Positions 4,711-28,117 of a stretch of DNA of 29,540 nucleotides are shown here, in pieces. The stretch spans positions 1 through 29,540 of IMG/VR virus record IMGVR_UViG_3300044300_001206; one strand, 5' to 3'. The position numbers were made by a program, and so were the translations under genes. The notes under the pieces were generated by a model, which was given only the letters and a program-made list of their open reading frames with translations, was not told where the DNA came from and searched no databases. Origin of the DNA: a virus (lineage: Duplodnaviria > Caudoviricetes). Position 1 is the stretch's first letter. Every line of letters begins with the position of its first letter.

Positions 4711-5918
4711 TAAAGATATTCTCCGTGAGTAAAGTTACGTCCTTGATCTTTTCTCCAACGCTGATTATTTAAATGAGTTTCCCATAATTGTTCAGGACTG
4801 AAAGCACCTGACTGTTGTGCTGGACTATTAGCAGTATCTGCTATCCATTTTGCTTTAGCTTGTTCTACTAAAGATTGTGCAGCATCTTCAGAAGGTACTG
4901 TTGATGGTACAGCAGATTCAACTACTACTGGTGCAGGATTAACTAAACCTGTATTAATAGTAAAACTAGGAGAAGTGAAGCTAGGAGGAGTTCTAGGACC
5001 TGGATCTCCTGTAACTCTATCTAATACTGGTGCTGGTGCTAATTGTGTAAATTCAGTAGTTTCTTGAGAAGCTTGTGGTCCTTGATAAAAACTTTGATTT
5101 AATGGATCAGCTTCATTTTGAGAAATTAAATTTCTTAGTTTTATTTTCTCTTGTAATTGATCCATAGTTAAATCACTTTCAGGAAGTTCACTAAGAGATT
5201 TTTCGGCTGCAGCTGTATTTTCATTTAAAAAATTTCTATAGTCTGCAAACTCATCTTTAGGTCCTGCTGGACGTTGATCTAATAAAGCAAGAGCTGTAGC
5301 TGCTGCACCTGCTTTTAATGTCACAGGATTAGTAAGCATTTGTGCTCCTTTTACAACCTCTCCAGGAGTTGCATAAATATGTGGTACTCCAGTTAATTGT
5401 TCTATCCCCTGTGCTGTTAAACCTCTTTTCGCAAGTCCCCAAGTTGGATTAAGAATGTTACGAGGGGTAAAATTAATGCCAGATTTGAATACACCTAAGT
5501 TTCTTACATCTCCTACCTTACCTTTTAAGAAATCTGCAGCTCCTTTAATATTTTTCTTAATACCATATCTCTGCATCTCACCACCTATATTGATAGGCTT
5601 ATCTAAAAATTCTTTAACTCCCCCTAATCGAAATTTAGTTTTATCTAGAATATTTGGTCCTTTGATATTTAAATCAAGATCTAAGGGACTTAGACCTAAT
5701 CGATTCTTAGCTTGGTTAATAAGATTATTGACTGTACTATTACCACCACTGGTTTTAAGAATATTATCTAAAGTTGATTTAGCTGTTTTAGGTATTTCAG
5801 GAGCTACTCTATTAATGAAACCTCTTGACTGATTTACATAGTTTTGTAGCCAATCAGGACCATATGCCATACCTCCAGAACTTAATAAACTTTGGATATA
5901 TTTTTCAGGAACAGACAT
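4710..5918 (-). CDS. Hypothetical protein, possible internal virion protein
   Basis: Long ORF; start moved to the ATG at 5918 (MSVPEKY), which forms a TAATG overlap with the upstream stop. Confidence 0.7.
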   Translation of the reverse strand: MSVPEKYIQSLLSSGGMAYGPDWLQNYVNQSRGFINRVAPEIPKTAKSTLDNILKTSGGNSTVNNLINQAKNRLGLSPLDLDLNIKGPNILDKTKFRLGGVKEFLDKPINIGGEMQRYGIKKNIKGAADFLKGKVGDVRNLGVFKSGINFTPRNILNPTWGLAKRGLTAQGIEQLTGVPHIYATPGEVVKGAQMLTNPVTLKAGAAATALALLDQRPAGPKDEFADYRNFLNENTAAAEKSLSELPESDLTMDQLQEKIKLRNLISQNEADPLNQSFYQGPQASQETTEFTQLAPAPVLDRVTGDPGPRTPPSFTSPSFTINTGLVNPAPVVVESAVPSTVPSEDAAQSLVEQAKAKWIADTANSPAQQSGAFSPEQLWETHLNNQRWRKDQGRNFTHGEYL

Positions 5919-6379
5919 TATCTCCAACTCTCCGCTAAATACTGACGAGAACCGACAGCAGTGTCGGCAGGACCAGGTAAAGCTTGTATAAACTCAGCTC
6001 CTGATCTTTCATATCTATACCTAGCCTGTAAAGGATCTTTGTAGTTAGGTACGTAAAGAATCGCAGCTAAGCGATTCGTTTCATAAAGATATATCTCATC
6101 CCAAATCTTTAAAGCTTCTTTTGCGTTACTGGATTTAATTGTTCTATCAACGTCTCCAGCAATTGTTTCTAATCTTGTAGATGGAGTTGAGGCTACTTCG
6201 GTTTTCTTCTCTGCAGTATCACATCTACCTATTTGAAGAGCAATCTTGTCATAGAAATATGAATCAGGAATAGTATTCATTGCTTCTTCCAGCCGTGCAT
6301 AATCACCTGCTGGTACTGAAACAGTGAAGTATCCTAAATGATACCTGACCCTGCTTTTATCAAAGTCGGATAACTGCAC
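5918..6379 (-). CDS. Putative head-tail adaptor
   Basis: 153 aa helical protein starting LSDFDKSRVRYHLGY; size and position after capsid genes fit an adaptor. Function inferred from synteny. Confidence 0.45.
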   Translation of the reverse strand: MQLSDFDKSRVRYHLGYFTVSVPAGDYARLEEAMNTIPDSYFYDKIALQIGRCDTAEKKTEVASTPSTRLETIAGDVDRTIKSSNAKEALKIWDEIYLYETNRLAAILYVPNYKDPLQARYRYERSGAEFIQALPGPADTAVGSRQYLAESWR

Positions 6380-7723: not shown

Positions 7724-8884
7724 CTATACAGATCCGTCATCTTCAACGAAGCTGAATCCTGTAGTTACGAAATCTTTATTAAGGATCTCAAACCCAGCGT
7801 ACAACTGCCAAATCAAAATTATAAATCTTGAAAAGTCATCATTATTATTAATAAGAACTTGTGCATTTGGTCCACCAATTCCAACACCAATTGCTTGTGG
7901 TCCGAAGAAATAACCTTGTGCAACTTCTTTAGAAGCATAAGAACTATTATCGAATGTAGCAGTTATATTTTTTGTTGGGAAGTTAGTAGATTCAAAGAAC
8001 TTAACACCTTCAAACTGTACGCCTGTTGGCATTACAGGTTCGCCAGCTAGGAAATAAGCTTGTCCAGCTTGAGGTCCCTGATAGAAGCTAGCGTTGTTAG
8101 GAATCATGGGGTTGCCCATGTACATTCCTTGTCCAGGAGCACCGGAGTAACGTGCGATTTCTCTGAAGTCAGAGTCACGACGTAAGTGCATCATGAATGT
8201 TGGGTCGCATATGCAACGATATAAACCATCTGCATATGTAGGAACATTACGCTTACGTAAGTCCTTAACAACAGTTAAGAGGTCAGTTTTAACTGAGAAC
8301 TGTTGAATCTGGTTGCCATACTCTGTAGTTGTATAAGCAATTCTTCCAGTTGAGTCTTTTGTCTTACCACCAGCAAAGTAGTAACCACCTTGACTAGTAG
8401 ATGCAGCACCATTAGCTTCTGCTTTAGAAAGCTCGTCAATAAAGACACGGTCACGCCATCTTCTGTAGTCATCAAGCAAGGTAAGTGAACCTATGCTCTG
8501 ATGGAACATATTAAGGTTCCCTGTGTCAAGTAGTAGACGTTGTGCTGTTACAAGAGTCTCTCTTGCAATCTTGAAAGTACTTGACTGAGTAGCATCACCA
8601 GGATCTGCAGGACCTGTGTATTCTTTAAGTACAACAAGTACCTTTTCCTTTGTGATGTTACGGCTGTTAGCAGTACCGATAGTCTGATCAGCTACACGCT
8701 CACGACTATCCTTTGTACCAGGGGTTCCCCAGAACTTATATCTATCCAACTGAACGGTTTGTCCAGGTTGGCGTGTAAAGTCATGTACCACTACTGGCTC
8801 ACAAGCCATCTCCGCTATATAAGCTGGATGGGGTCTATAGAGCTCGGCTCCCAAAATTTTTGGGAAATCATTATCAATGAACAC
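7724..8884 (-). CDS. Major capsid protein (probably HK97 fold; reminiscent of N4-gp56-like MCPs)
   Basis: 386 aa; GQTVQLDRY E-loop-like segment, GVQFEGVKFFESTN and GYFFGPQAIG motifs typical of MCP C-terminal halves; strong GGAGG RBS with GTG start; follows portal and scaffold. Confidence 0.8.
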   Translation of the reverse strand: MFIDNDFPKILGAELYRPHPAYIAEMACEPVVVHDFTRQPGQTVQLDRYKFWGTPGTKDSRERVADQTIGTANSRNITKEKVLVVLKEYTGPADPGDATQSSTFKIARETLVTAQRLLLDTGNLNMFHQSIGSLTLLDDYRRWRDRVFIDELSKAEANGAASTSQGGYYFAGGKTKDSTGRIAYTTTEYGNQIQQFSVKTDLLTVVKDLRKRNVPTYADGLYRCICDPTFMMHLRRDSDFREIARYSGAPGQGMYMGNPMIPNNASFYQGPQAGQAYFLAGEPVMPTGVQFEGVKFFESTNFPTKNITATFDNSSYASKEVAQGYFFGPQAIGVGIGGPNAQVLINNNDDFSRFIILIWQLYAGFEILNKDFVTTGFSFVEDDGSV

Positions 8885-8991: not shown

Positions 8992-9639
8992 TTAAGAATA
9001 TTGAGCTGTCGAGGCTTTATAACGAGCCCCAGGCGAATTACTAGAACCATAAGATTCTGGATCAATTCCCGTAAAGCCAGGTACACCTAAAGCACCTGGA
9101 ATAGCACCAGCGGCTACACCGCCAAGACCTGCTGTTAATGCACTAGCAGGAACTAAACCTGCTGCAGCTGCATATTTTGTCCCACTTAAGAAGTTAGGGT
9201 TTGTACCCATAGTGGCTGCTTGAGTTAACATCTCTGCTAAATCTTCTGCCCTATTAGCTCTAAAACTCCTATCTCCTCGAAGAACTGATTTTTTTGAAGG
9301 TCCTCTACCACTTTTTGCATAGTGATAAGGATCTCTCGGTTCAGCTACGGTATAACCACTTGCATCTCTAGTAATGCCTTTTTTAGCATTAAGATTATCA
9401 GCGTAAGTAGTAAGCCTATCTACTGCTCCTTGTGCTTTTGGACCTGCAAATAAACCTGCAAATCTACCAGCAAGTTCTGGAGCAGCAGCACGAGCACCTT
9501 TTAAACCAGCGTACGCACCTAAGCCACCAGCAATACCAGCTAGACCTGTTGAGCCTAAATCCTCATCTTGAGAAGCAGCATAACCTGCAGTGCCGATACC
9601 GACAGATGTAGGTATGCCGTATTTAATAGCTCCTCTCAT
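8992..9639 (-). CDS. Gly/Ala-rich protein with glycine-zipper segments
   Basis: 215 aa; GLAGIAGGLGAYAG and AGLGGVAAGAIPGALG. Confidence 0.7.
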   Translation of the reverse strand: MRGAIKYGIPTSVGIGTAGYAASQDEDLGSTGLAGIAGGLGAYAGLKGARAAAPELAGRFAGLFAGPKAQGAVDRLTTYADNLNAKKGITRDASGYTVAEPRDPYHYAKSGRGPSKKSVLRGDRSFRANRAEDLAEMLTQAATMGTNPNFLSGTKYAAAAGLVPASALTAGLGGVAAGAIPGALGVPGFTGIDPESYGSSNSPGARYKASTAQYS

Positions 9640-9643
9640 AGGT

Positions 9644-10675
9644 CTACTCCATTACAAACAATTTATTAGCAACTGTTTGTGGCTGAGCTTGGTTCAACAT
9701 TCTCCATGCATTTCCTGGGTCACGAGACATTTGCTCGTTGAATGTACCCCAGAAATTCTCAGGCTGTTGTGGTGGAGCAGCTTGAGGAGGTGCAGGGAAG
9801 TTCTGACCAGCTGTAGCTAAAGCGTTAGGAGTTTGAGGCTGCCCTTCAACTGCAGGCTGTTGGCCTACTGGAGCTGTTGGATATCCTTTAGTTTCTAACT
9901 GTTGCTCATTTTCATAAACAGGGTATGGACCTTCTGGACCAAAGAACTTCAATGTATAGTCACTAAGCACATCTGGGTTAGTAAGTATCTCGTTATAAGC
10001 AAGATTCTCTTGATGCTCTTGTACAGAAAAATCAGCGTATCCTTTAATTACTTCTTGTGCTCTATTTCCCCACGTTACGGCGTTGTCCAGCATTCCTTCT
10101 AGATTTACCGCGTACTGGTTTAGTACCGCTGGTGCCTCTATCCCGAACGCGTCCATCACCTGACGGCTTTCGTTGCTCATTCCTACCTGGTTCTGGACTG
10201 CGTCCAGCTGAGCCGAGGAGAGATTCGAAGAGGTTTGGGAAGAGCTGTCCGAGTATGTCTGGCTGGCTGGCGAGATCTGCGGAGCCGATTGTGGCATAGT
10301 TGGGGCGCTCACCTGACCGTAGTTGGCCTGGGTATACTGAGGAGCCGCCGTCTGAGATTGTTGACCCTGGAACGGGGATTGGACTGGAGTGCTCAGTAGT
10401 CCTACCACCTTGTTGAACGCCGATTCCCATGGACCGTCCTGCTGAGGAGCCGCCGGTTGGGATTGGGGGGCGTACTGAGTAGGGGCGGATTGGAAGCTGG
10501 GGGTTCCCTGTGGTACTGCTTGTGGGAAGCTGGTACCCACTTGATATTGACCCGGTGTCTGTGGAGCCGCCTGTGGAGCTGCTGCTGGAGCTGCCGCCAC
10601 GTAACTGCTCGGAGCCACTGTCGCTGTTGGTGCTTGGCTCGTCTGTTGGGTCGATTGGTCTGTAGCGACCTGCAT
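9644..10675 (-). CDS. Putative capsid scaffolding protein
   Basis: 343 aa, Q/P/A-rich disordered regions with a helical core; RBS AAGGAG 7 nt before the ATG; lies between portal and MCP. Confidence 0.6.
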   Translation of the reverse strand: MQVATDQSTQQTSQAPTATVAPSSYVAAAPAAAPQAAPQTPGQYQVGTSFPQAVPQGTPSFQSAPTQYAPQSQPAAPQQDGPWESAFNKVVGLLSTPVQSPFQGQQSQTAAPQYTQANYGQVSAPTMPQSAPQISPASQTYSDSSSQTSSNLSSAQLDAVQNQVGMSNESRQVMDAFGIEAPAVLNQYAVNLEGMLDNAVTWGNRAQEVIKGYADFSVQEHQENLAYNEILTNPDVLSDYTLKFFGPEGPYPVYENEQQLETKGYPTAPVGQQPAVEGQPQTPNALATAGQNFPAPPQAAPPQQPENFWGTFNEQMSRDPGNAWRMLNQAQPQTVANKLFVME

Positions 10676-12422
10676 AACTCATCTCCTTTTGTAACGCCTC
10701 GAGTGTTCGATACAGATATGGTGTCAGATCTAGGCGTGGATCTGCTGCCATAGGTAAGTCGGGTGACTGAGGATGAGGAGTCTGCATCATTCCCCCCACG
10801 AGTCTTGCAAATTGAGAGTATGCACCCTGCAATTCATTAACCATTCTGAATGGGAAGCCCGATAACATGGCAGCCCTTTCTTCATCCGTTTTCGACGGAA
10901 AGAGATACTTCAGTGCTTCTATGCTATCTACCCCTAATTCTTGTAGGTTTCTTACAACAATTGAGTTATTCAAAGTATCCTGAGTTGAGTCTTCATATAC
11001 TGGTCCGAGCCATCTCCACTGAATTGTTACATCTCCGTCTGGTATTAGACCTGTAACACCTGGTGGAATTTGCTGAGATTGCAGACATGCCATCATTAGT
11101 TGCTTAACTTGCTCTTCGTAATATCCCATTGCTTCTGTATAAAGCTTTGTCTCTTCAGGGGATGGATTAGCAGGAAGATCAATTGGTTTTTCTAAACCTA
11201 CTGCTCGTGCAAGACTCTCTTTAAATAGATTTTCTTCTTGGAAAATTATTAGTTCTAAACAACGACAAAGACCATATGTGTAAAGTGAAGTAGCTTTCTT
11301 CTTAGAAGTAGCAGCAACTCGGCCAAATAATGACTTATATTCAGTAGCAGTTACACCTGCAGATATAGATAGTTCATCTACTCCACCAAGCGCAGTTCTT
11401 ATTTCTTCTCTGTATTGACGAGAAAAAGAGTTCTGATCTCCAGTAATAGCATCAGGAACTATATAACCAACACGATCATTTGGTTCTAAGTTTGCAATAA
11501 CTCTAGGTACTCTTATCTGTCCATCAATACCACGGGATAATGGATCAGCTTTATATCGAGAACCACTTAAAGGACCTAATCCTGTAAATCCTGAATTAGA
11601 TGCAATAGAAGGACGTTGTACTTGGGCTTCTCCAGATTCCATTAAATCTGTCTTAGGACGAGAAGATAATAATGTTGGATTACCAAAGAAGGTTACGTTC
11701 TTCCTCATGGTGCGGATCATTTCATCATGAGTACATATATGGTTAGCTAGTGCATCAAACTCACCTGATCCTTCGGCAGAAAACCCTTTTGCGTTATTGA
11801 ATATCTCAACACAAGGTATAAAACCTAATGTATTAGTAAACGTCTTAGTTTTACCAGGTACACTATGATGCTGATTTTCAAAAGAAATTTCACCTTCTGA
11901 ATGAGTTTCTTCAATTGTTTTACGCTTAATAGAAAGTCTTATATATTTCTTAGTTCCTTGTTGAACACCATTTGTTGAACCTGTTAAATTCTGAGTAGCA
12001 ATATCCTGTTGATAACCTAAACCTTGACGAACTTTATAGCTATAGATAATTACAACTTCATCCAGCTGGCCATCAAGATTGTAATAGCTACGATATTCGT
12101 GCTTACGAAAATAATATAGTCTGTAATTTGTAGAGGTTGGTCGAATGTAAAAAATGCCTTGTCCATCACAAAGAAAGTAATCCCATATGGAATCAAGTCT
12201 AGTATCTAATTGATTATATTTAATTACTCTGTCTATAAAATCTTTACGTTGATTACCAAAATTATCTTGAGCAGGAAAAAATTCAACACCTTGTCTAATA
12301 CCGAATAGCTTCATCTGGGCTAAATGAGAAGCTACAATTCCTGTATCGATTCCACCTCCACCATCTCTTTCAAGATAAGAATCGATAATTTCCTTTAAAC
12401 GTGATTTAGCGTCACTAGCCAT
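10062..12422 (-). CDS. Putative portal protein with about 200-aa disordered C-terminal extension
   Basis: 786 aa; NTLGFIPCVEIFN...EGSGEFD and SAGVTATEYK motifs resemble SPP1-like portals; position between TerL and MCP. Confidence 0.75.
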   Translation of the reverse strand: MASDAKSRLKEIIDSYLERDGGGGIDTGIVASHLAQMKLFGIRQGVEFFPAQDNFGNQRKDFIDRVIKYNQLDTRLDSIWDYFLCDGQGIFYIRPTSTNYRLYYFRKHEYRSYYNLDGQLDEVVIIYSYKVRQGLGYQQDIATQNLTGSTNGVQQGTKKYIRLSIKRKTIEETHSEGEISFENQHHSVPGKTKTFTNTLGFIPCVEIFNNAKGFSAEGSGEFDALANHICTHDEMIRTMRKNVTFFGNPTLLSSRPKTDLMESGEAQVQRPSIASNSGFTGLGPLSGSRYKADPLSRGIDGQIRVPRVIANLEPNDRVGYIVPDAITGDQNSFSRQYREEIRTALGGVDELSISAGVTATEYKSLFGRVAATSKKKATSLYTYGLCRCLELIIFQEENLFKESLARAVGLEKPIDLPANPSPEETKLYTEAMGYYEEQVKQLMMACLQSQQIPPGVTGLIPDGDVTIQWRWLGPVYEDSTQDTLNNSIVVRNLQELGVDSIEALKYLFPSKTDEERAAMLSGFPFRMVNELQGAYSQFARLVGGMMQTPHPQSPDLPMAADPRLDLTPYLYRTLEALQKEMSYAGRYRPIDPTDEPSTNSDSGSEQLRGGSSSSSSTGGSTDTGSISSGYQLPTSSTTGNPQLPIRPYSVRPPIPTGGSSAGRSMGIGVQQGGRTTEHSSPIPVPGSTISDGGSSVYPGQLRSGERPNYATIGSADLASQPDILGQLFPNLFESLLGSAGRSPEPGRNEQRKPSGDGRVRDRGTSGTKPVRGKSRRNAGQRRNVGK

Positions 12423-15738: not shown

Positions 15739-17265
15739 TTAAAAGTCTAACTGAAGGTTACCTTTCCTCATTAACCCTGTAACTAACCACACTAAAGCGT
15801 CTACACAATCATCATGACTACTAACACCAAAGTTAGTTAATTCTTCAAACATATTCGTAAAGTTTCTATAGCGGTTGAAGATAATTTTTCTATCTTCAAA
15901 CATACCCATAATTCCTCTAAATCTAGCTAACTTATCTGCTCTAAATCCTTTAACAGGATGCCAAACTAAATTATATAAATTCTCTCCTTGTAAACAAACT
16001 CGTTTAAAGTCAGCTTCTAATGAAGCCTGGTATTGAACTGCTTCTGACCAAATATCACATGTTGAATAAGTAGGGTAGTAGATACCGTTTTGATCTTGTC
16101 CTATAACAGACCAATCATTTAATAACTCTTTTAAAGCATCTAATTTTTCTAAATTACCCATTACTCGTATACGTCTGTAATCAATTATGTGTATACGGTC
16201 TTCAATTCTCCCTCCAAGAACCATAACTGTGTAGTCATTCTTTTCTCTAACACCTGCAGATAAGTCAACTCCTATTCCTAACGTATCAAATTCTGTTGTT
16301 ATTTCGGCTTTAACAATTAACTCTGGTGCTAGTGATAGTTCATTTTGACGAATAACTTTATTCATATACTGGAATGAAAAAGCAATAGGAGCTTGTCGTT
16401 TCTTTTCTTTTAAATACTCCAGTGACCACATATCAGGCCAATAGGATTTTTCTTCACCTGTTTCTTTATCATTATTAATTGCAGATAAGACTATTTGAGT
16501 CCAATTATTCTGATCGTTAAAAGTAGTTGAATGGATATCATCATGTCTGAACCTAGTTCCTAAACATATAGCTCTAGCTCCTTCAAACATAGTTGGTGCA
16601 ATAACAGCATTCCAATTGTCTTGCATCTGTTTTCTAATATCTGGGTTAGCTATATCAGCAGCAGATTTAATAGCGTCATCAATCATCACAAGATGAGAAC
16701 GCTTAGATGTAACAGAACCTTTTAATCCAGCAGCACATAAAGTAAATTGTTCTTCACCAGTAGTATCTATTCCTGCAAACTTATGATCAATAGACCAGTA
16801 CTCATTACTTGTAACATTCTTTAAAAGACGTACATGAGGAAAGACTTCTTGATATCTTTTACTTTCAATAATTCTTTTAATAGTTGCAGACTTAGATCGA
16901 GCAATATCAACAGTGTAAGAAAGATAGAGAATCTGTAATGGTAACTTAGCTTCTGTATGTATCCCAATAGCCCAAGCAGTAAGTAAACCTAAAACTGTAG
17001 ACTTAGCAGAACCACGAGGTGCTAAGAGATCTACATTTGGTCCAGCAATCTTAATTAAACAGCTACTATCTTCTCCAGTTATAAAATGTCTATGCCATTC
17101 TTTATGATGCTCAGCAGGAGGTTTATCAGCTACATACTCACAAAAATAAGCAAAATTATCTCTTGCTTTTTCCAGTAACTCTAAATTTTTAGGTTTCTTG
17201 ATTTGTTGCTTACGAGCAGCAGCCTTAGCATTACGTCTATATGCAAGATGGGTATAAGAAGGCAC
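15739..17265 (-). CDS. terL: Terminase large subunit
   Basis: Walker A APRGSAKST, Walker B LVMIDD, coupling motif LGTR, nuclease acidic motifs GVDLS, NDYT and HDDCVDA. Confidence 0.95.
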   Translation of the reverse strand: MPSYTHLAYRRNAKAAARKQQIKKPKNLELLEKARDNFAYFCEYVADKPPAEHHKEWHRHFITGEDSSCLIKIAGPNVDLLAPRGSAKSTVLGLLTAWAIGIHTEAKLPLQILYLSYTVDIARSKSATIKRIIESKRYQEVFPHVRLLKNVTSNEYWSIDHKFAGIDTTGEEQFTLCAAGLKGSVTSKRSHLVMIDDAIKSAADIANPDIRKQMQDNWNAVIAPTMFEGARAICLGTRFRHDDIHSTTFNDQNNWTQIVLSAINNDKETGEEKSYWPDMWSLEYLKEKKRQAPIAFSFQYMNKVIRQNELSLAPELIVKAEITTEFDTLGIGVDLSAGVREKNDYTVMVLGGRIEDRIHIIDYRRIRVMGNLEKLDALKELLNDWSVIGQDQNGIYYPTYSTCDIWSEAVQYQASLEADFKRVCLQGENLYNLVWHPVKGFRADKLARFRGIMGMFEDRKIIFNRYRNFTNMFEELTNFGVSSHDDCVDALVWLVTGLMRKGNLQLDF

Positions 17266-17513: not shown

Positions 17514-18389
17514 TTACTTTCTTCCTCTAAGTTCTTTTAGCTTACTTAAGAAATTTTTGAATCTAGAAGAATCAACGCCTTTTGGAAGTTTAGATTCTGA
17601 GTAACCTACTTTAGGTGTATTAGACGTATCAGAAGAGGGGCCTCGACCTCGTTGCCAAGCAGATCCTTCTGGTGGTCTAAAACCTCCGTTTGAAGCAGTC
17701 CACGTTTCTCCTGTTTCAGGGTTATACCAATCCACCAAAGCCATGGTAGATATTCCTCCAGAATGAGTAAAGCCATGGGGATTTACCAGCTTTGCCATCT
17801 GCTCTGGAGTTAAGTTCTTATAATCTATCTCAGGTTTTTTCCCTTCAACTGGTGGTTTATTTGGAAAACGCCCTTCTTTAGGTGGCCATCTACGAACTGG
17901 TTTGTCTCTAGGTGGTCTACCTCCTCTTAACCAATCTGGTTTTCTAGGTCCCTCTCTCTCTGGAAGGTCTATACGTCCAAAACCAGGACGACGATCAGGA
18001 CGACGATCAGGACGACGATCAGGACGACGATTAGATCTTCTTTCAGCCTCTCGTCTATCTCGTTCTCTTCTTCTGTCCATTTCCATTTCCTTTCTTTGTC
18101 TATATTTATCACGTTCTACTCTTCCTGACTCCATAGCAACTCTCCAAGAATTAGGTCCTGAACCACCTCCTCTAAATATGGGTGGGGTATCTCGATCTAC
18201 TCTTTCTCTACTACCTCCCTTGTAGATACCTCGATCTTTTGCTATCTCTGAAGCACCTTTAAATATTGTAGATATAGTAGATCCACCATCACCAAAAGGT
18301 TTAGGACCTGGTTGTTGATTTCCTTGATCAGGAAAACCAGGAAGTCCTACTTCTTTATTTCCTTTAAATGTAGCTTTAGAGCCGCCCAT
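17514..18389 (-). CDS. Arg/Gly/Pro-rich disordered basic protein
   Basis: 291 aa, RBS GAGGA, begins MGGSK, contains RRPD repeats. Confidence 0.7.
   Translation of the reverse strand: MGGSKATFKGNKEVGLPGFPDQGNQQPGPKPFGDGGSTISTIFKGASEIAKDRGIYKGGSRERVDRDTPPIFRGGGSGPNSWRVAMESGRVERDKYRQRKEMEMDRRRERDRREAERRSNRRPDRRPDRRPDRRPGFGRIDLPEREGPRKPDWLRGGRPPRDKPVRRWPPKEGRFPNKPPVEGKKPEIDYKNLTPEQMAKLVNPHGFTHSGGISTMALVDWYNPETGETWTASNGGFRPPEGSAWQRGRGPSSDTSNTPKVGYSESKLPKGVDSSRFKNFLSKLKELRGRK
17984..18031. repeat. Four perfect tandem copies of CAGGACGACGAT
   Basis: Directly visible; encodes NRRPDRRPDRRPDRRP on the minus strand. Confidence 0.95.
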
Positions 18390-24843: not shown

Positions 24844-25049
24844 GATTTTTTACGTCCTTTTAAACCTACTAATGTTTTACGTAAGCGAGCTTGCTTAACC
24901 GTCTTCTCATCATAGTCGTCAGGATTAGATAAGACATTCTCTTGTAGCTGTGCAGAAGTTATACCCTTCTTTTCAGCTTTGGCAGTGAAAGCTCCCTTAT
25001 GAAGATTAGCTTTCTGTACCCACTTTTTGTCTTTCTTTTCTTTTGTCAT
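24840..25049 (-). CDS. 69-aa basic protein
   Basis: KKWVQKA..HKGAFT...KQARLRKTL, a small basic phage protein pattern; ATGA-coupled on both sides. Confidence 0.7.
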   Translation of the reverse strand: MTKEKKDKKWVQKANLHKGAFTAKAEKKGITSAQLQENVLSNPDDYDEKTVKQARLRKTLVGLKGRKKS

Positions 25050-28048
25050 GACTGACTCCTTGCTCTACTCGTTCTTATTAGCTGTTCAATCATTGTTTCT
25101 GAAGGAGGTTGATAAGGTCTTAGAGATTTTTTAAGTTTATTTCCCTGCTTTCCTGGCTGAGCAACAATACGTCCTATCTCTCCTGGTTTATCCCCTTTCA
25201 AGTTAGCGTGAGTAAATGCAACATAATTTGCTAAGTGTGTTCGAACTGCTGCATCTCTTTCAGCACTAAGAACTTCCTCTTTTTGACTCAAAAGTGTAGC
25301 CGGTCCTTGCCAGTTAAGTAGATCTTTTTGACTTAAAGGAGTAGATTGTCCAGTCACGTATGTTTGTCCTTTAGATTGACTACCTACATTTCTAGCATCT
25401 TGAGTTCTAGCTTGCATTTGTTCAGGAGAAGCTTTTCTCTCTTTACCTTTAGCTCTAAGTGATAATATTGCTTGAGTAATTGAATTAGGAGTTACATCCT
25501 TTGCTCCTTTCTGTTGATACATGTTACTAACATTACTTACAATATTCTGATATTGTTCTTTAGAAGCTAATTTACCTTGTGAAGATTTCGCAGATTTTAA
25601 AAGCTGTAAAGTATCTTTAGTTGCTGCATCAAGTGTAAGATTTTGTCCTTGAAGTGTTTGTAGAGCAGTTACACGTTTTCTTTGATCTGGTGGTGGATCA
25701 GTTCTCATCTCTAATCTAGGAACACCCCAGACAGCATCATCAGCTGAACCTTCTACCAATGATTTATCAATACCTCCAAGACCTGCTGTTTTAACTCCTG
25801 TTAATTCCCTAGCTTCTGTTGGCTCATTTAAAGCTTTATCCCAAGCACCTCTATCTCTACCCGTTGCAGTTTGACCTCCAACCGATCTACGGCCAAAGAC
25901 TTTACTCTCACCTTCTAGCTTTAAAACATCTTTAACAAACTGAGACTTAATATACATGTCTTGAAGTACAGGTAAGTCAGTTCCTAAACCACCAGCTTGT
26001 TGAGGGGCTTTAATCTTTTCATATGAGATATCTGCAATCTGTGAATAATAGGTTTTAGGATCTACAGGTTCAAGTGAAGCATCTACTTGCTGTTTGGCCT
26101 GACTCATTAGACCACGAACTCTATCCATAGGTAGTTTTGCATTCTTTAGCTTTCCATCCACTCTTTGTTTTAACTTTCCATAGATAGGAACTGAAGTCAC
26201 AAATGATTCAACACCACCTGGTTGACCTGTTTGTTTAGCAAGTGCAGTCTTCTCTTGAACTACCTTAGTAACTGAGTAAGGTTGAACATCTAACGTAGGA
26301 CTACTTGGGTCATAAGTAGTAGTCTTCATATTTTGAACTTGCTTTAAGTTTCCAATAGGAAGAAGCTGACCCTGACCTGTTAATTCAGATTTAACGACAC
26401 TATAGGGAACCATTTGGGGATTCTTAGTTTTTTCGTTAACTATGATTGAGACAGTATCAAAATCAAATACCTGAACTGGTTCCGCTGTACGATACCCACC
26501 TACTTGAGCAGCAATCGATCCAGGTGCAGAAACCTTTGCTGGAGTAGGTAATTGACTAATTTTCTTTAACTCAGTAGTAGGTCTAGTTTCCAATCCACTA
26601 CCCTGTCTTATGAGTTTCCTTTCACGAGTACCAATATTTGGATTAAGTTTCTGTCCGTCTCTAACTTCTTCAACAAGAATAGATTTACCTCCTTTCTGTC
26701 TACGATCTGTAGTAGTCTTAACTTCCTGTAAAAGATTTCTAGGTTCTTGAGTATCTACAATTGTCTCAGGAACTTCATCTAAACCATGTTGCCTTGCTAA
26801 CTGATTAAGCTTTTTACCACTTATCTCATACAGTTGTTTATCTTGTGGGGTACTAGCCATAAGTTTGGCTTCTTGATATTTAACTGGCTGTCCATTTATC
26901 AATGATTCTCTTGGAGCAACATAACCTTTAGAAGCTAATACATCCCAATCTCTAACAAAATTTACCCACCTTTTCTCATACTCTGGATTCATTGTTGTTC
27001 TTGTACCTGTAGCTCCTTCTGCTCCCATAGCTTTCATCATCTCTCCTTCTTCAGAAAGAGTAAGAGGAACTGTACCCTTAGAAGCTGAGATCTCATACGT
27101 AGGATTAACCTTACTTAAAACTCTTGAGATTCTTGGGTCAGAGGTAGGAACAGTACGATCTAACAGAAGTTGTTTTTCTTCAAAAGTAGGCTGCCATGTG
27201 TTACTACCAGCTGTAGCATTAATTCTATTTAAAGCATCTTCTCTATTAACTTTTGAAGGGAAAGCCTGTGTATCCGCAGTTACACCTAATTGCTTCATTC
27301 TCTGTCTTGGAAGATTTAAATCACCAACTCTACCTGTCAAGTTAAATACTATAGGCATACCTTGTTCTTTGACATAAGAAGTCAAAGCAGTTCCAACTGA
27401 CTCTTTTGCTTTTTCAAATTGAGGTTGTGAAGAAGGTCTTCCTTGTCTCCCTACATTTACTCGACCCCATGGAAGATCAATAGTGGTTAACTCATCTGCT
27501 TTTAATTGCTCCTGTAATTGATTTACACTTCTATTGAAATCTCGATACCCAGGTGAAGCTGGAACTACAGGAGTCCTTTGACTCATCTGCTCTATTAGAT
27601 TTGCTCTTCTATTAAATTCTCTAAATTCAGGTGATGCATCAGATCTAGCTGGTCCTCCAGTGAGTACAGTCTTACTAGGTGCAACTGAAACTTGTACTTC
27701 GTCTTTTTTAGGAACTTTAGAAATCTGTTCCTGCAGTTGTTCTAACTTAGCTTTACCCTGGACAATGCCTTCATTCCCGGATCTCGGTCTAGCAACCGTA
27801 CTTTTTGCTCTACCTCTAAAACCTTGGGCAGCACTTATCCCTGTAGCTAACGCCATGCCAAATAATCCGGCACCCATAGCGATATCTGAAAGATCTGGGC
27901 CAGATTGCTCTTGAGCTGGGGCACGTAATTGACTTTGTCTAAACCTACGGACTTCAGGTACTAGTCGTGCTCTTTCTTCTGCAGATTCAGGGTATTGCGT
28001 ACCTGTGGCTTGGCTATATGCATAGAAATCATTAGGTGCAAGTACCAT
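25046..28048 (-). CDS. About 1000-aa protein, putative large internal virion protein
   Basis: Start moved to the ATG at 28048 (MVLAPNDFYAY); one hydrophobic segment near the N-terminus; short internal duplication ASPEFREFNR/ASPGYRDFNR; no catalytic motif recognised. Confidence 0.65.
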   Translation of the reverse strand: MVLAPNDFYAYSQATGTQYPESAEERARLVPEVRRFRQSQLRAPAQEQSGPDLSDIAMGAGLFGMALATGISAAQGFRGRAKSTVARPRSGNEGIVQGKAKLEQLQEQISKVPKKDEVQVSVAPSKTVLTGGPARSDASPEFREFNRRANLIEQMSQRTPVVPASPGYRDFNRSVNQLQEQLKADELTTIDLPWGRVNVGRQGRPSSQPQFEKAKESVGTALTSYVKEQGMPIVFNLTGRVGDLNLPRQRMKQLGVTADTQAFPSKVNREDALNRINATAGSNTWQPTFEEKQLLLDRTVPTSDPRISRVLSKVNPTYEISASKGTVPLTLSEEGEMMKAMGAEGATGTRTTMNPEYEKRWVNFVRDWDVLASKGYVAPRESLINGQPVKYQEAKLMASTPQDKQLYEISGKKLNQLARQHGLDEVPETIVDTQEPRNLLQEVKTTTDRRQKGGKSILVEEVRDGQKLNPNIGTRERKLIRQGSGLETRPTTELKKISQLPTPAKVSAPGSIAAQVGGYRTAEPVQVFDFDTVSIIVNEKTKNPQMVPYSVVKSELTGQGQLLPIGNLKQVQNMKTTTYDPSSPTLDVQPYSVTKVVQEKTALAKQTGQPGGVESFVTSVPIYGKLKQRVDGKLKNAKLPMDRVRGLMSQAKQQVDASLEPVDPKTYYSQIADISYEKIKAPQQAGGLGTDLPVLQDMYIKSQFVKDVLKLEGESKVFGRRSVGGQTATGRDRGAWDKALNEPTEARELTGVKTAGLGGIDKSLVEGSADDAVWGVPRLEMRTDPPPDQRKRVTALQTLQGQNLTLDAATKDTLQLLKSAKSSQGKLASKEQYQNIVSNVSNMYQQKGAKDVTPNSITQAILSLRAKGKERKASPEQMQARTQDARNVGSQSKGQTYVTGQSTPLSQKDLLNWQGPATLLSQKEEVLSAERDAAVRTHLANYVAFTHANLKGDKPGEIGRIVAQPGKQGNKLKKSLRPYQPPSETMIEQLIRTSRARSQS

Positions 28049-28108
28049 CTGCTTTGTATTGTTACTGTTTTCTACCTTTGAGTATTCTATGAGGAAGAAA
28101 TCTACCCG

Positions 28109-28117
28109 TGATAGCAT
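28109..28117 (+). promoter_or_regulatory. Extended -10 promoter candidate (TGATAGCAT), divergent from the late region
   Basis: 33 nt before the ATG at 28151; a minus-strand TAGAAT lies at about 28084-28089. Confidence 0.4.

Follow-up and report, generated by a model that had tools for sequence, protein, structure and literature searches.

Scaffold genes that lie inside another gene are known from the C/Nu3 pair of phage lambda and the protease/scaffold pair of herpesviruses; both are read in the same frame as the gene around them, whereas the portal/scaffold pair described here is out-of-frame. Overprinting is familiar from genes B and E of phiX174, a small, size-limited ssDNA phage, whereas a complete genome related to the one studied here is 79 kb. 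In lambda, Rz1 lies in the +1 frame of Rz. Two-component spanin genes such as lambda Rz/Rz1 occur in separated, overlapped and embedded forms among relatives, and, like the portal/scaffold pair, they are same-strand, out-of-frame genes of tailed phages with products that act in one process, as far as the available part of that study goes (PMC6139136, Kongari et al. 2018). Spanins, however, are lysis proteins, whereas the present genes belong to the core of head assembly and share about 200 mostly disordered codons over which constraint alternates between the frames. In the accessible parts of two surveys, +1 overlaps have a median of 14 nt (IQR 8-26; PMC8903798) and 84% of viral overlaps are under 50 nt (PMC7017920). 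The overlap of 614 nt reported here is far above these published lengths, and the view of the sequence-only reading that it is unusual for two core head genes is borne out. A conserved overlap of nblA with an exonuclease gene in T7-like cyanophages extends, in the portion of the report available, up to 110 nt and concerns an accessory gene (PMC12695635), whereas overlaps of 443-668 nt between core genes are described below.

Contact between scaffold and portal is itself not new. The C-terminal barrel of the P22 portal is an extension of >100 residues into the head that is unfolded in the procapsid, and scaffold acts directly on the portal during assembly (PMC5529062, Motwani et al. 2017, from the part available); scaffold-portal contact during assembly is likewise established for HK97, according to the excerpt available (PMC10275583). 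The P22 barrel turns helical, whereas the tail described below carries short motifs in a Ser/Gly/Pro-rich sequence that gives no indication of a long helix, and the available part of the P22 study describes no such gene overlap (PMC5529062). A preprint on a related marine lineage names the portal and, in its accessible part, uses 'overlap' for the genome ends (10.1101/325100). No paper describing the overlap was found in the literature searched, the original S-EIV1 paper lying outside that search.

Setting and identity of the two genes

The DNA analysed, referred to as the window, is the whole of a 29.5-kb linear virus record (29,540 nt, 37% complete) that carries psbA, large terminase and major capsid protein (MCP) genes, and it is a fragment of an S-EIV1-like cyanophage. 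When 50,697 GenBank phage records were searched with the two overlapping proteins, S-EIV1 was the sole match to either (73% and 67% identity). The genes and elements considered are as follows.

15739..17265 (-), large terminase, context (phrog_38, PF17289)
10062..12422 (-), portal gene, 786 aa, with a core of ~583 residues and a low-complexity C-terminal tail of 203 residues (from ORF and predicted fold)
10676..10688 (-), Shine-Dalgarno AAGGAG (10688-10683) and a 7-nt spacer that holds a TGA in the scaffold frame
10062..10675 (-), dual-coding overlap, 614 nt (two open frames, conservation, selection on both)
9644..10675 (-), likely capsid scaffold, 343 aa, read in the +1 frame relative to the portal (ORF, synteny, predicted helices)
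10391..10435 (-), N-terminal amphipathic W..AF segment of the scaffold, residues 81-95 (scaffold frame dominates)
9647..9754 (-), C-terminal helical unit of the scaffold, residues 308-343, predicted coat-binding end (conserved in all clades, helical in the model)
7724..8884 (-), MCP, context (phrog_1357, E 7.6e-16)

Several other features of the window were recorded. The viral psbA gene (photosystem II D1; 652-1737, -) sits at the end of the structural block. A 215-aa Gly/Ala-rich ORF (8992-9639, -) separates the scaffold from the capsid gene, a spacing that is about 110 to 2,400 nt in related loci and 10-30 nt in those farthest removed. Immediately upstream of the terminase lies a 291-aa ORF (17514-18389, -) with Arg-rich repeats (RRPD units), raised GC and no family match, and a 1023-aa ORF (25046-28117, -) is without a Pfam or PHROG match. 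A terminator-like hairpin of 13 pairs (6845-6815, -) directly follows the 276-aa gene that comes after the capsid gene; it would close a scaffold-capsid transcription unit.

The product of 10062-12422 has, as modelled, the fold of a portal protein. An AlphaFold2 model of residues 1-574 reached a pLDDT of 85, and the top 50 entries of a structure search over 48,161 chains were all portal or neck entries (Z 20.7 to 12.3), the best match having a Z of 20.7 and an rmsd of 4.3 over 324 aligned residues. The Atlas feature score to portal clusters was 0.96, which together with this fold upholds the portal assignment of the sequence-only reading; a sequence search of solved structures gave a portal match only at E 0.087. 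The gene stands between the terminase and capsid genes in the window, and in one distant locus (L252) terminase, portal, scaffold and capsid genes are adjacent.

The product of 9644-10675 is likely a capsid scaffold, by synteny and modelling; this identity, taken for granted in the sequence-only reading, is kept as likely but unproven. The gene lies 10-30 nt upstream of an MCP homologue in five distant loci (L246-L250) and directly before it in two more (L251, L252). A structure model of the last 185 residues shows a helix of 65 residues and three short C-terminal helices that form a bundle (pLDDT 79.8, pTM 0.38), and a loose W..AF/W..AL pattern for the N-terminal segment recurs in 60 of 67 loci (being relatives of one another, these loci do not provide independent events, here or in the counts below). 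When the C-terminal 51 residues were modelled in complex with the MCP the support was weak, with a score of 0.57 against 0.00 for the best control; one of three runs scored 0.00 (contact agreement at least 0%, partner pLDDT at least 40). The mark for this score was reached by 116 of 157 solved pairs and 2 of 215 mismatched ones, and scores at 0.60 or under took in only 18 solved pairs but both mismatches. That the gene instead encodes some other internal head or ejection protein would fit with the intervening gene in the window, with the lack of a scaffold family match in Pfam or PHROG, with an Atlas score of 0.77 ('putative scaffolding protein', a lead only) and with a fold search which, barely testing the C-terminal unit, returned only generic coiled coils (Z at most 5.7). 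Searching the sequences of solved structures gave nothing for the MCP profile and nothing meaningful for the scaffold end. We regard this alternative as improbable given the position directly before the MCP in distant loci, the layout of a long helix followed by C-terminal helices and the weak complex support.

The orthologous locus of S-EIV1 (KJ410740; AHV82224.1, AHV82225.1) has 73% portal identity and a 554-nt overlap from the same start. In GenBank both genes are hypothetical and the second begins at 59863, after the portal stop, as a protein of 133 aa; the open scaffold frame begins at 59287 and encodes 325 aa (59287-60264, or 9751-10728 of the locus extracted here, L081). The annotation therefore keeps the last 133 of 325 codons and misses the overlap, which is corrected here. 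In the S-EIV1 capsid region the annotation is broken up around an antisense ORF (60784-61545).

Extent and conservation of the overlap

The portal ORF and the ORF at 9644-10675 are offset by +1 and have 614 nt in common, and this is not due to chance. The portal frame, put at about 204 open codons past the scaffold ATG in the sequence-only reading, stays open for exactly 203 codons and the stop, and the ribosome-binding site AAGGAG ascribed there to the scaffold is found at 10688-10683, 7 nt ahead of the ATG. The third frame has 11 stops within the overlap, and in the portal frame 15 stops occur over the 139 codons that follow its own. With the scaffold protein held fixed, 11.4 portal-frame stops would be expected under the codon usage of the window and 6.6 under uniform usage, and none was seen; the codon test that had been suggested for stop-free length put the probability of an open portal frame at 1.1e-7 and 4.2e-4 respectively. 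The reverse test, for an open scaffold frame, gave 7.2e-4 (window usage) or 1.6e-2 (uniform usage). The compositional observations held as well: the four hand counts of GC (40, 33, 23 and 16 of 60) were all correct, and the overlap has a GC content of 58.5%, compared with 43.3% for the remainder of the scaffold gene, 37.7% for the portal core and 38.9% for the window. The scaffold codons GCG/ACG/CCG number 9/3/5 within the overlap and 0/0/0 after the portal stop, and T-ending scaffold codons before AA/AG/GA number 0 of 24 inside (an open frame makes this zero by definition) and 15 of 21 outside.

The overlap recurs throughout the relatives. A close set of 82 loci was made up of the best 80 of 653 viral loci, S-EIV1 and the window; the junction was reached in 80 of the 82, with an ATG at the same place in 80/80. 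In the 72 close loci that reach the portal stop the overlap measures 518-668 nt in 71, the remaining one (L080) having a portal stop at a 185-nt overlap, 9 nt from the contig end. Portal stops are thus not scattered near 10680, the observation that the sequence-only reading had named as contrary to it; the other, an assembly error that removed a stop, is ruled out by the recurrence of the overlap in many independent contigs. A search of 1.84 billion representatives found 298 relatives, and the portal tail has at least 100 residues in 49 of 55 near-full-length aligned protein representatives, with short tails of 18-66 residues in some distant portals (P0061, P0095, P0067, P0077 and P0006).

Distant loci were added by profile scans, and 250 loci were cut to 171 distinct ones by dropping duplicates (identical last 260 residues), loci that lacked the junction or ended before the portal stop, and L138, which has many frame breaks across several genes, likely from sequencing error. 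The +1 frame is free of stops from the junction to the portal stop in 170 of the 171, over a range of 32-100% portal identity. The 6 loci below 40% identity have overlaps of 266-521 nt, the 91 loci at 40-60% have 443-590 nt and the 74 above 60% have 185-668 nt, and the position of the portal stop varies by about 50 codons. The sole exception, L172, has a +1 stop 28 codons past the first ATG and a later start that leaves a 359-nt overlap; its late-starting scaffold-like ORF (5644-6100) has a tandem helical repeat (QIAD.IAQ.YQAQE units). GTDB genomes yielded 9 loci, mostly on short contigs in MAGs of unrelated taxa, and these 9 gave no sign of a cyanobacterial prophage.

Selection on both frames and the portal tail

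Purifying selection acts on each frame, in alternating blocks. Omega was estimated from isolated substitutions on a minimum spanning tree of 58 close sequences, each classed by its effect per frame. In the overlap the close clade has a portal-frame omega of 0.22 (95% 0.13-0.36) and a scaffold-frame omega of 0.11 (0.07-0.17), and past the portal stop the portal-frame value is 1.77 (0.84-4.06). In two distant clades (43 and 35 sequences) the portal values are 0.18 (0.11-0.27) and 0.26 (0.18-0.36), with controls past the stop of 1.53 and 3.59, and the scaffold values are 0.14 and 0.20. Simulation of selection on the scaffold alone, with avoidance of stops, gave portal values of 0.65-0.94, so that the proposal of selection on both frames stands in three clades. 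In the close clade the portal frame dominates scaffold codons 1-16, where 49 changes are silent in the portal frame alone and 7 in the scaffold frame alone, and codons 125-157, where portal omega is 0.08. The scaffold frame dominates codons 17-60, 81-100 (scaffold omega 0.03, portal omega 1.13) and 158-204. Portal omega is about 1 or above at codons 69-100 and 158-204; over the latter, the last third of the overlap, it is 1.75, without selection at the level of residues, and the frame is still open. The Gly codon of the scaffold W-G-N is GGA in 24 of 24 loci inside the overlap and in 4 of 11 outside.

The tail begins after the crown region, and the portal crown faces the head interior in established portal structures. 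With 51% S/G/T/P the tail is as rich in these residues as had been described. From its start it consists of a conserved junction, an S/G/T linker, a Pro-rich segment and then a motif, an amphipathic segment and a basic tip. Four of these elements were placed on the sequence.

10635..10685 (-), portal junction segment, residues 580-596 (portal frame dominates constraint)
10359..10382 (-), P.P.PG[S/T] motif of the portal tail, residues 681-688 (near-invariant in the close clade)
10212..10277 (-), DL...QLFPNL amphipathic segment of the portal tail, residues 716-737 (portal frame dominates)
10065..10112 (-), basic tip at the C-terminus of the tail (net charge against a recoding null)

At the junction, portal codons Q578-M581 (CAA AAG GAG ATG) and Y583 (TAT) are invariant in 35/35 non-redundant close loci. 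The P.P.PG[S/T] motif, scored by a loose pattern that is permissive in Pro-rich sequence, was present in 57 of the 67 loci and in 51 of the 55 protein representatives, and an [LYF][FY]P pattern for the amphipathic segment in 14 of 67 and 23 of 55. The amphipathic island noticed in the single sequence is thus only partly general: it is conserved in the close clade and in many distant portals, QLFP recurring in many at about 40% identity, but in two large clades other motifs replace QLFP after the same PD/AD-L anchor. The basic end was confirmed, the net charge of the last 26 residues being above the recoding null in 63 of the 67 loci (mean +6.0 against +2.8). The portal-frame selection seen in three clades supports the suggestion that this is a functional, disordered tail. 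Taken together, the sequence comparisons indicate that the overlap very probably encodes two proteins, a flexible portal tail and the flexible front half of the likely scaffold.

An RNA signal upstream of the scaffold start

Constraint on the portal gene was also detected ahead of the junction.

10773..10937 (-), zone of low synonymous variation with conserved hairpins in the coding region of the portal crown (synonymous entropy, covariation, folding)

In the close clade, synonymous entropy is 0.31-0.58 from portal codon 496 to the junction against 0.64-0.86 before, and the two distant clades show only weak synonymous suppression upstream of the junction. A further ORF was rejected as the cause, as each of the other five frames has conserved stops there. 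A six-helix structure was paired in 92% of cells against 37-49% in slid controls and had 28 double changes against 10.8 in shuffles, although it was derived from the same sequences that were scored, a circumstance under which both controls are favourable to it. In three clades a stretch of 180 nt that ends 60 nt ahead of the junction folds better than its synonymous shuffles (z -2.0 to -2.6; folding controls, -1.0 to 0.0). A candidate -10 hexamer, TAGCAT, lies at 10926-10921 (-) with an invariant GCA codon 7 nt later, and the two could mark an internal promoter. A consensus promoter scan found no site upstream of the scaffold start, did not list TAGCAT and gave totals at the level of shuffles; Rfam returned one match only, at chance level (E 0.77). 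Possibly, 10773-10937 forms the structured leader of an internal transcript.

Weighing of alternatives

The best explanation overall, to which we give a probability of about 0.8, is that two separately started proteins are made from the same 614 bases, together with the mechanism set out below. Under a reading in which only the scaffold is selected, the open portal frame would be a by-product of composition or of constraint on the RNA and the tail would be neutral. The scaffold N-terminus is indeed low in K/N/D/E and hence has lower odds of a portal-frame stop, the stop varies in position and portal omega is about 1 or more over codons 69-100 and 158-204. Even so, the absence of stops where 6.6-11.4 are expected, portal omegas below the simulated range in all three clades, tail motifs that recur at about 40% core identity and a tip more basic than recoding gives make a neutral tail hardly credible. 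The sequence-only reading had also allowed for a fusion. A programmed +1 (or -2) frameshift in the overlap would explain it by joining portal and scaffold into a fusion that holds scaffold at the portal vertex; in all clades the portal core ends just where the +1 frame opens, structured RNA is nearby and many loci of one clade (ELTY) are without a clear Shine-Dalgarno. Such a fusion needs no start at the junction, yet one is kept: a clade at about 53% identity has no junction ATG but opens its +1 frame at the same place, with a GTG one codon downstream after the retained AAGGAG (46 loci at that offset), and in other lineages an ATG or GTG lies 0-18 nt from the junction, in every clade. No slippery site leading from the portal into the scaffold frame is conserved among the 35 close loci, where the conserved heptamers are of the -1 type only and the same-residue +1 sites are Pro/Gly runs. 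The hairpins moreover lie upstream and not downstream of the junction, and a fusion leaves selection on the portal frame 150 codons downstream unexplained. A fusion is on these grounds very unlikely as the explanation of the overlap, although a minor fusion product may be made, and separate initiation appears preferable since the start codon is kept at the junction (ATG to GTG) and no slippery site is conserved. Two of the -1 heptamers were looked at singly. C CCA AAC, in the portal frame at QLFPNL (10237-10243 region), occurs in 27 of 35 close loci; a shift there would enter the third, stop-rich frame, and the heptamer is probably a by-product of the codons. G GGA AA(C/T) at the scaffold W-G-N (23/35) was rejected as a -1 signal, not being kept where the portal has already stopped.

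With two separately started proteins as the preferred reading, there remains the order in which their frames arose. The portal tail probably grew over an older scaffold, as suggested by the overlaps of only 44-215 nt in the four loci farthest away. These (L251-L254, 28-33% identity) have the most divergent portals for which DNA was available; their overlaps of 215, 44, 95 and 95 nt are again in the +1 frame, the portals are without the tail motifs, and the scaffolds keep the N-terminal amphipathic segment, which in L252 lies beyond the portal stop, and the C-terminal unit. In a quick midpoint-rooted tree of 45 cores the short-overlap group came first and a group with ~270 nt next, with long branches meeting there. 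The direction implied when the tail was first described as overprinted on the scaffold thus fits the short-overlap outgroup but gains no confirmation from codon usage, which across 67 loci favours the scaffold frame in 23 and the portal frame in 44 (mean r 0.05 and 0.09). This slight leaning, the dominance of the portal frame over the first 16 codons and the persistence of tail motifs in short-tailed distant portals would suit the reverse, an older portal tail over which the scaffold gene was lengthened when it acquired a start farther upstream. We consider that order unlikely: the most distant group already has the scaffold start at the same junction, with short portal tails devoid of the motifs, and has the amphipathic scaffold segment inside or outside the overlap.

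Proposed mechanism and significance

We propose that ribosomes begun at the portal start would read on to the portal stop and that others would start at the AAGGAG/ATG within the portal gene, with scaffold likely made mainly from a more abundant internal transcript with a structured leader. Coming after the crown domain, the tail would project into the head, where 12 copies would line the inside of the portal vertex, the basic tip likely touching DNA. The tail motifs may dock on scaffold, coat or internal head proteins in procapsid nucleation, a role to which we give somewhat less than even odds. The overlap likely grew by loss of portal stops over the older scaffold and then by in-frame insertions, each of which would lengthen both disordered regions at once. 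A more ambitious version, which we hold to be doubtful, is that of a hard-wired assembly module, in which the two products of the overlap, portal tail and scaffold N-terminus, would bind one another and nucleate the procapsid at the portal vertex, and the leader would set the ratio of portal to scaffold. Were this true, every in-frame insertion would lengthen both tethers together, and a functional appendage of ~200 residues would have arisen de novo on a highly conserved virion protein and spread through a global cyanophage lineage.

The overlap is a real and old dual-coding region. At 450-670 nt, kept down to ~40% portal identity and without an obvious limit on genome size, the portal/scaffold overlap is far outside the published range. 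Its graded relatives (44, 95, 215, about 270 and 450-670 nt) provide a natural series for the growth of an overprinted region and for the way in which two disordered proteins come to share a sequence. It also points to an unstudied appendage of the portal that can be tested in a cultured phage, S-EIV1.
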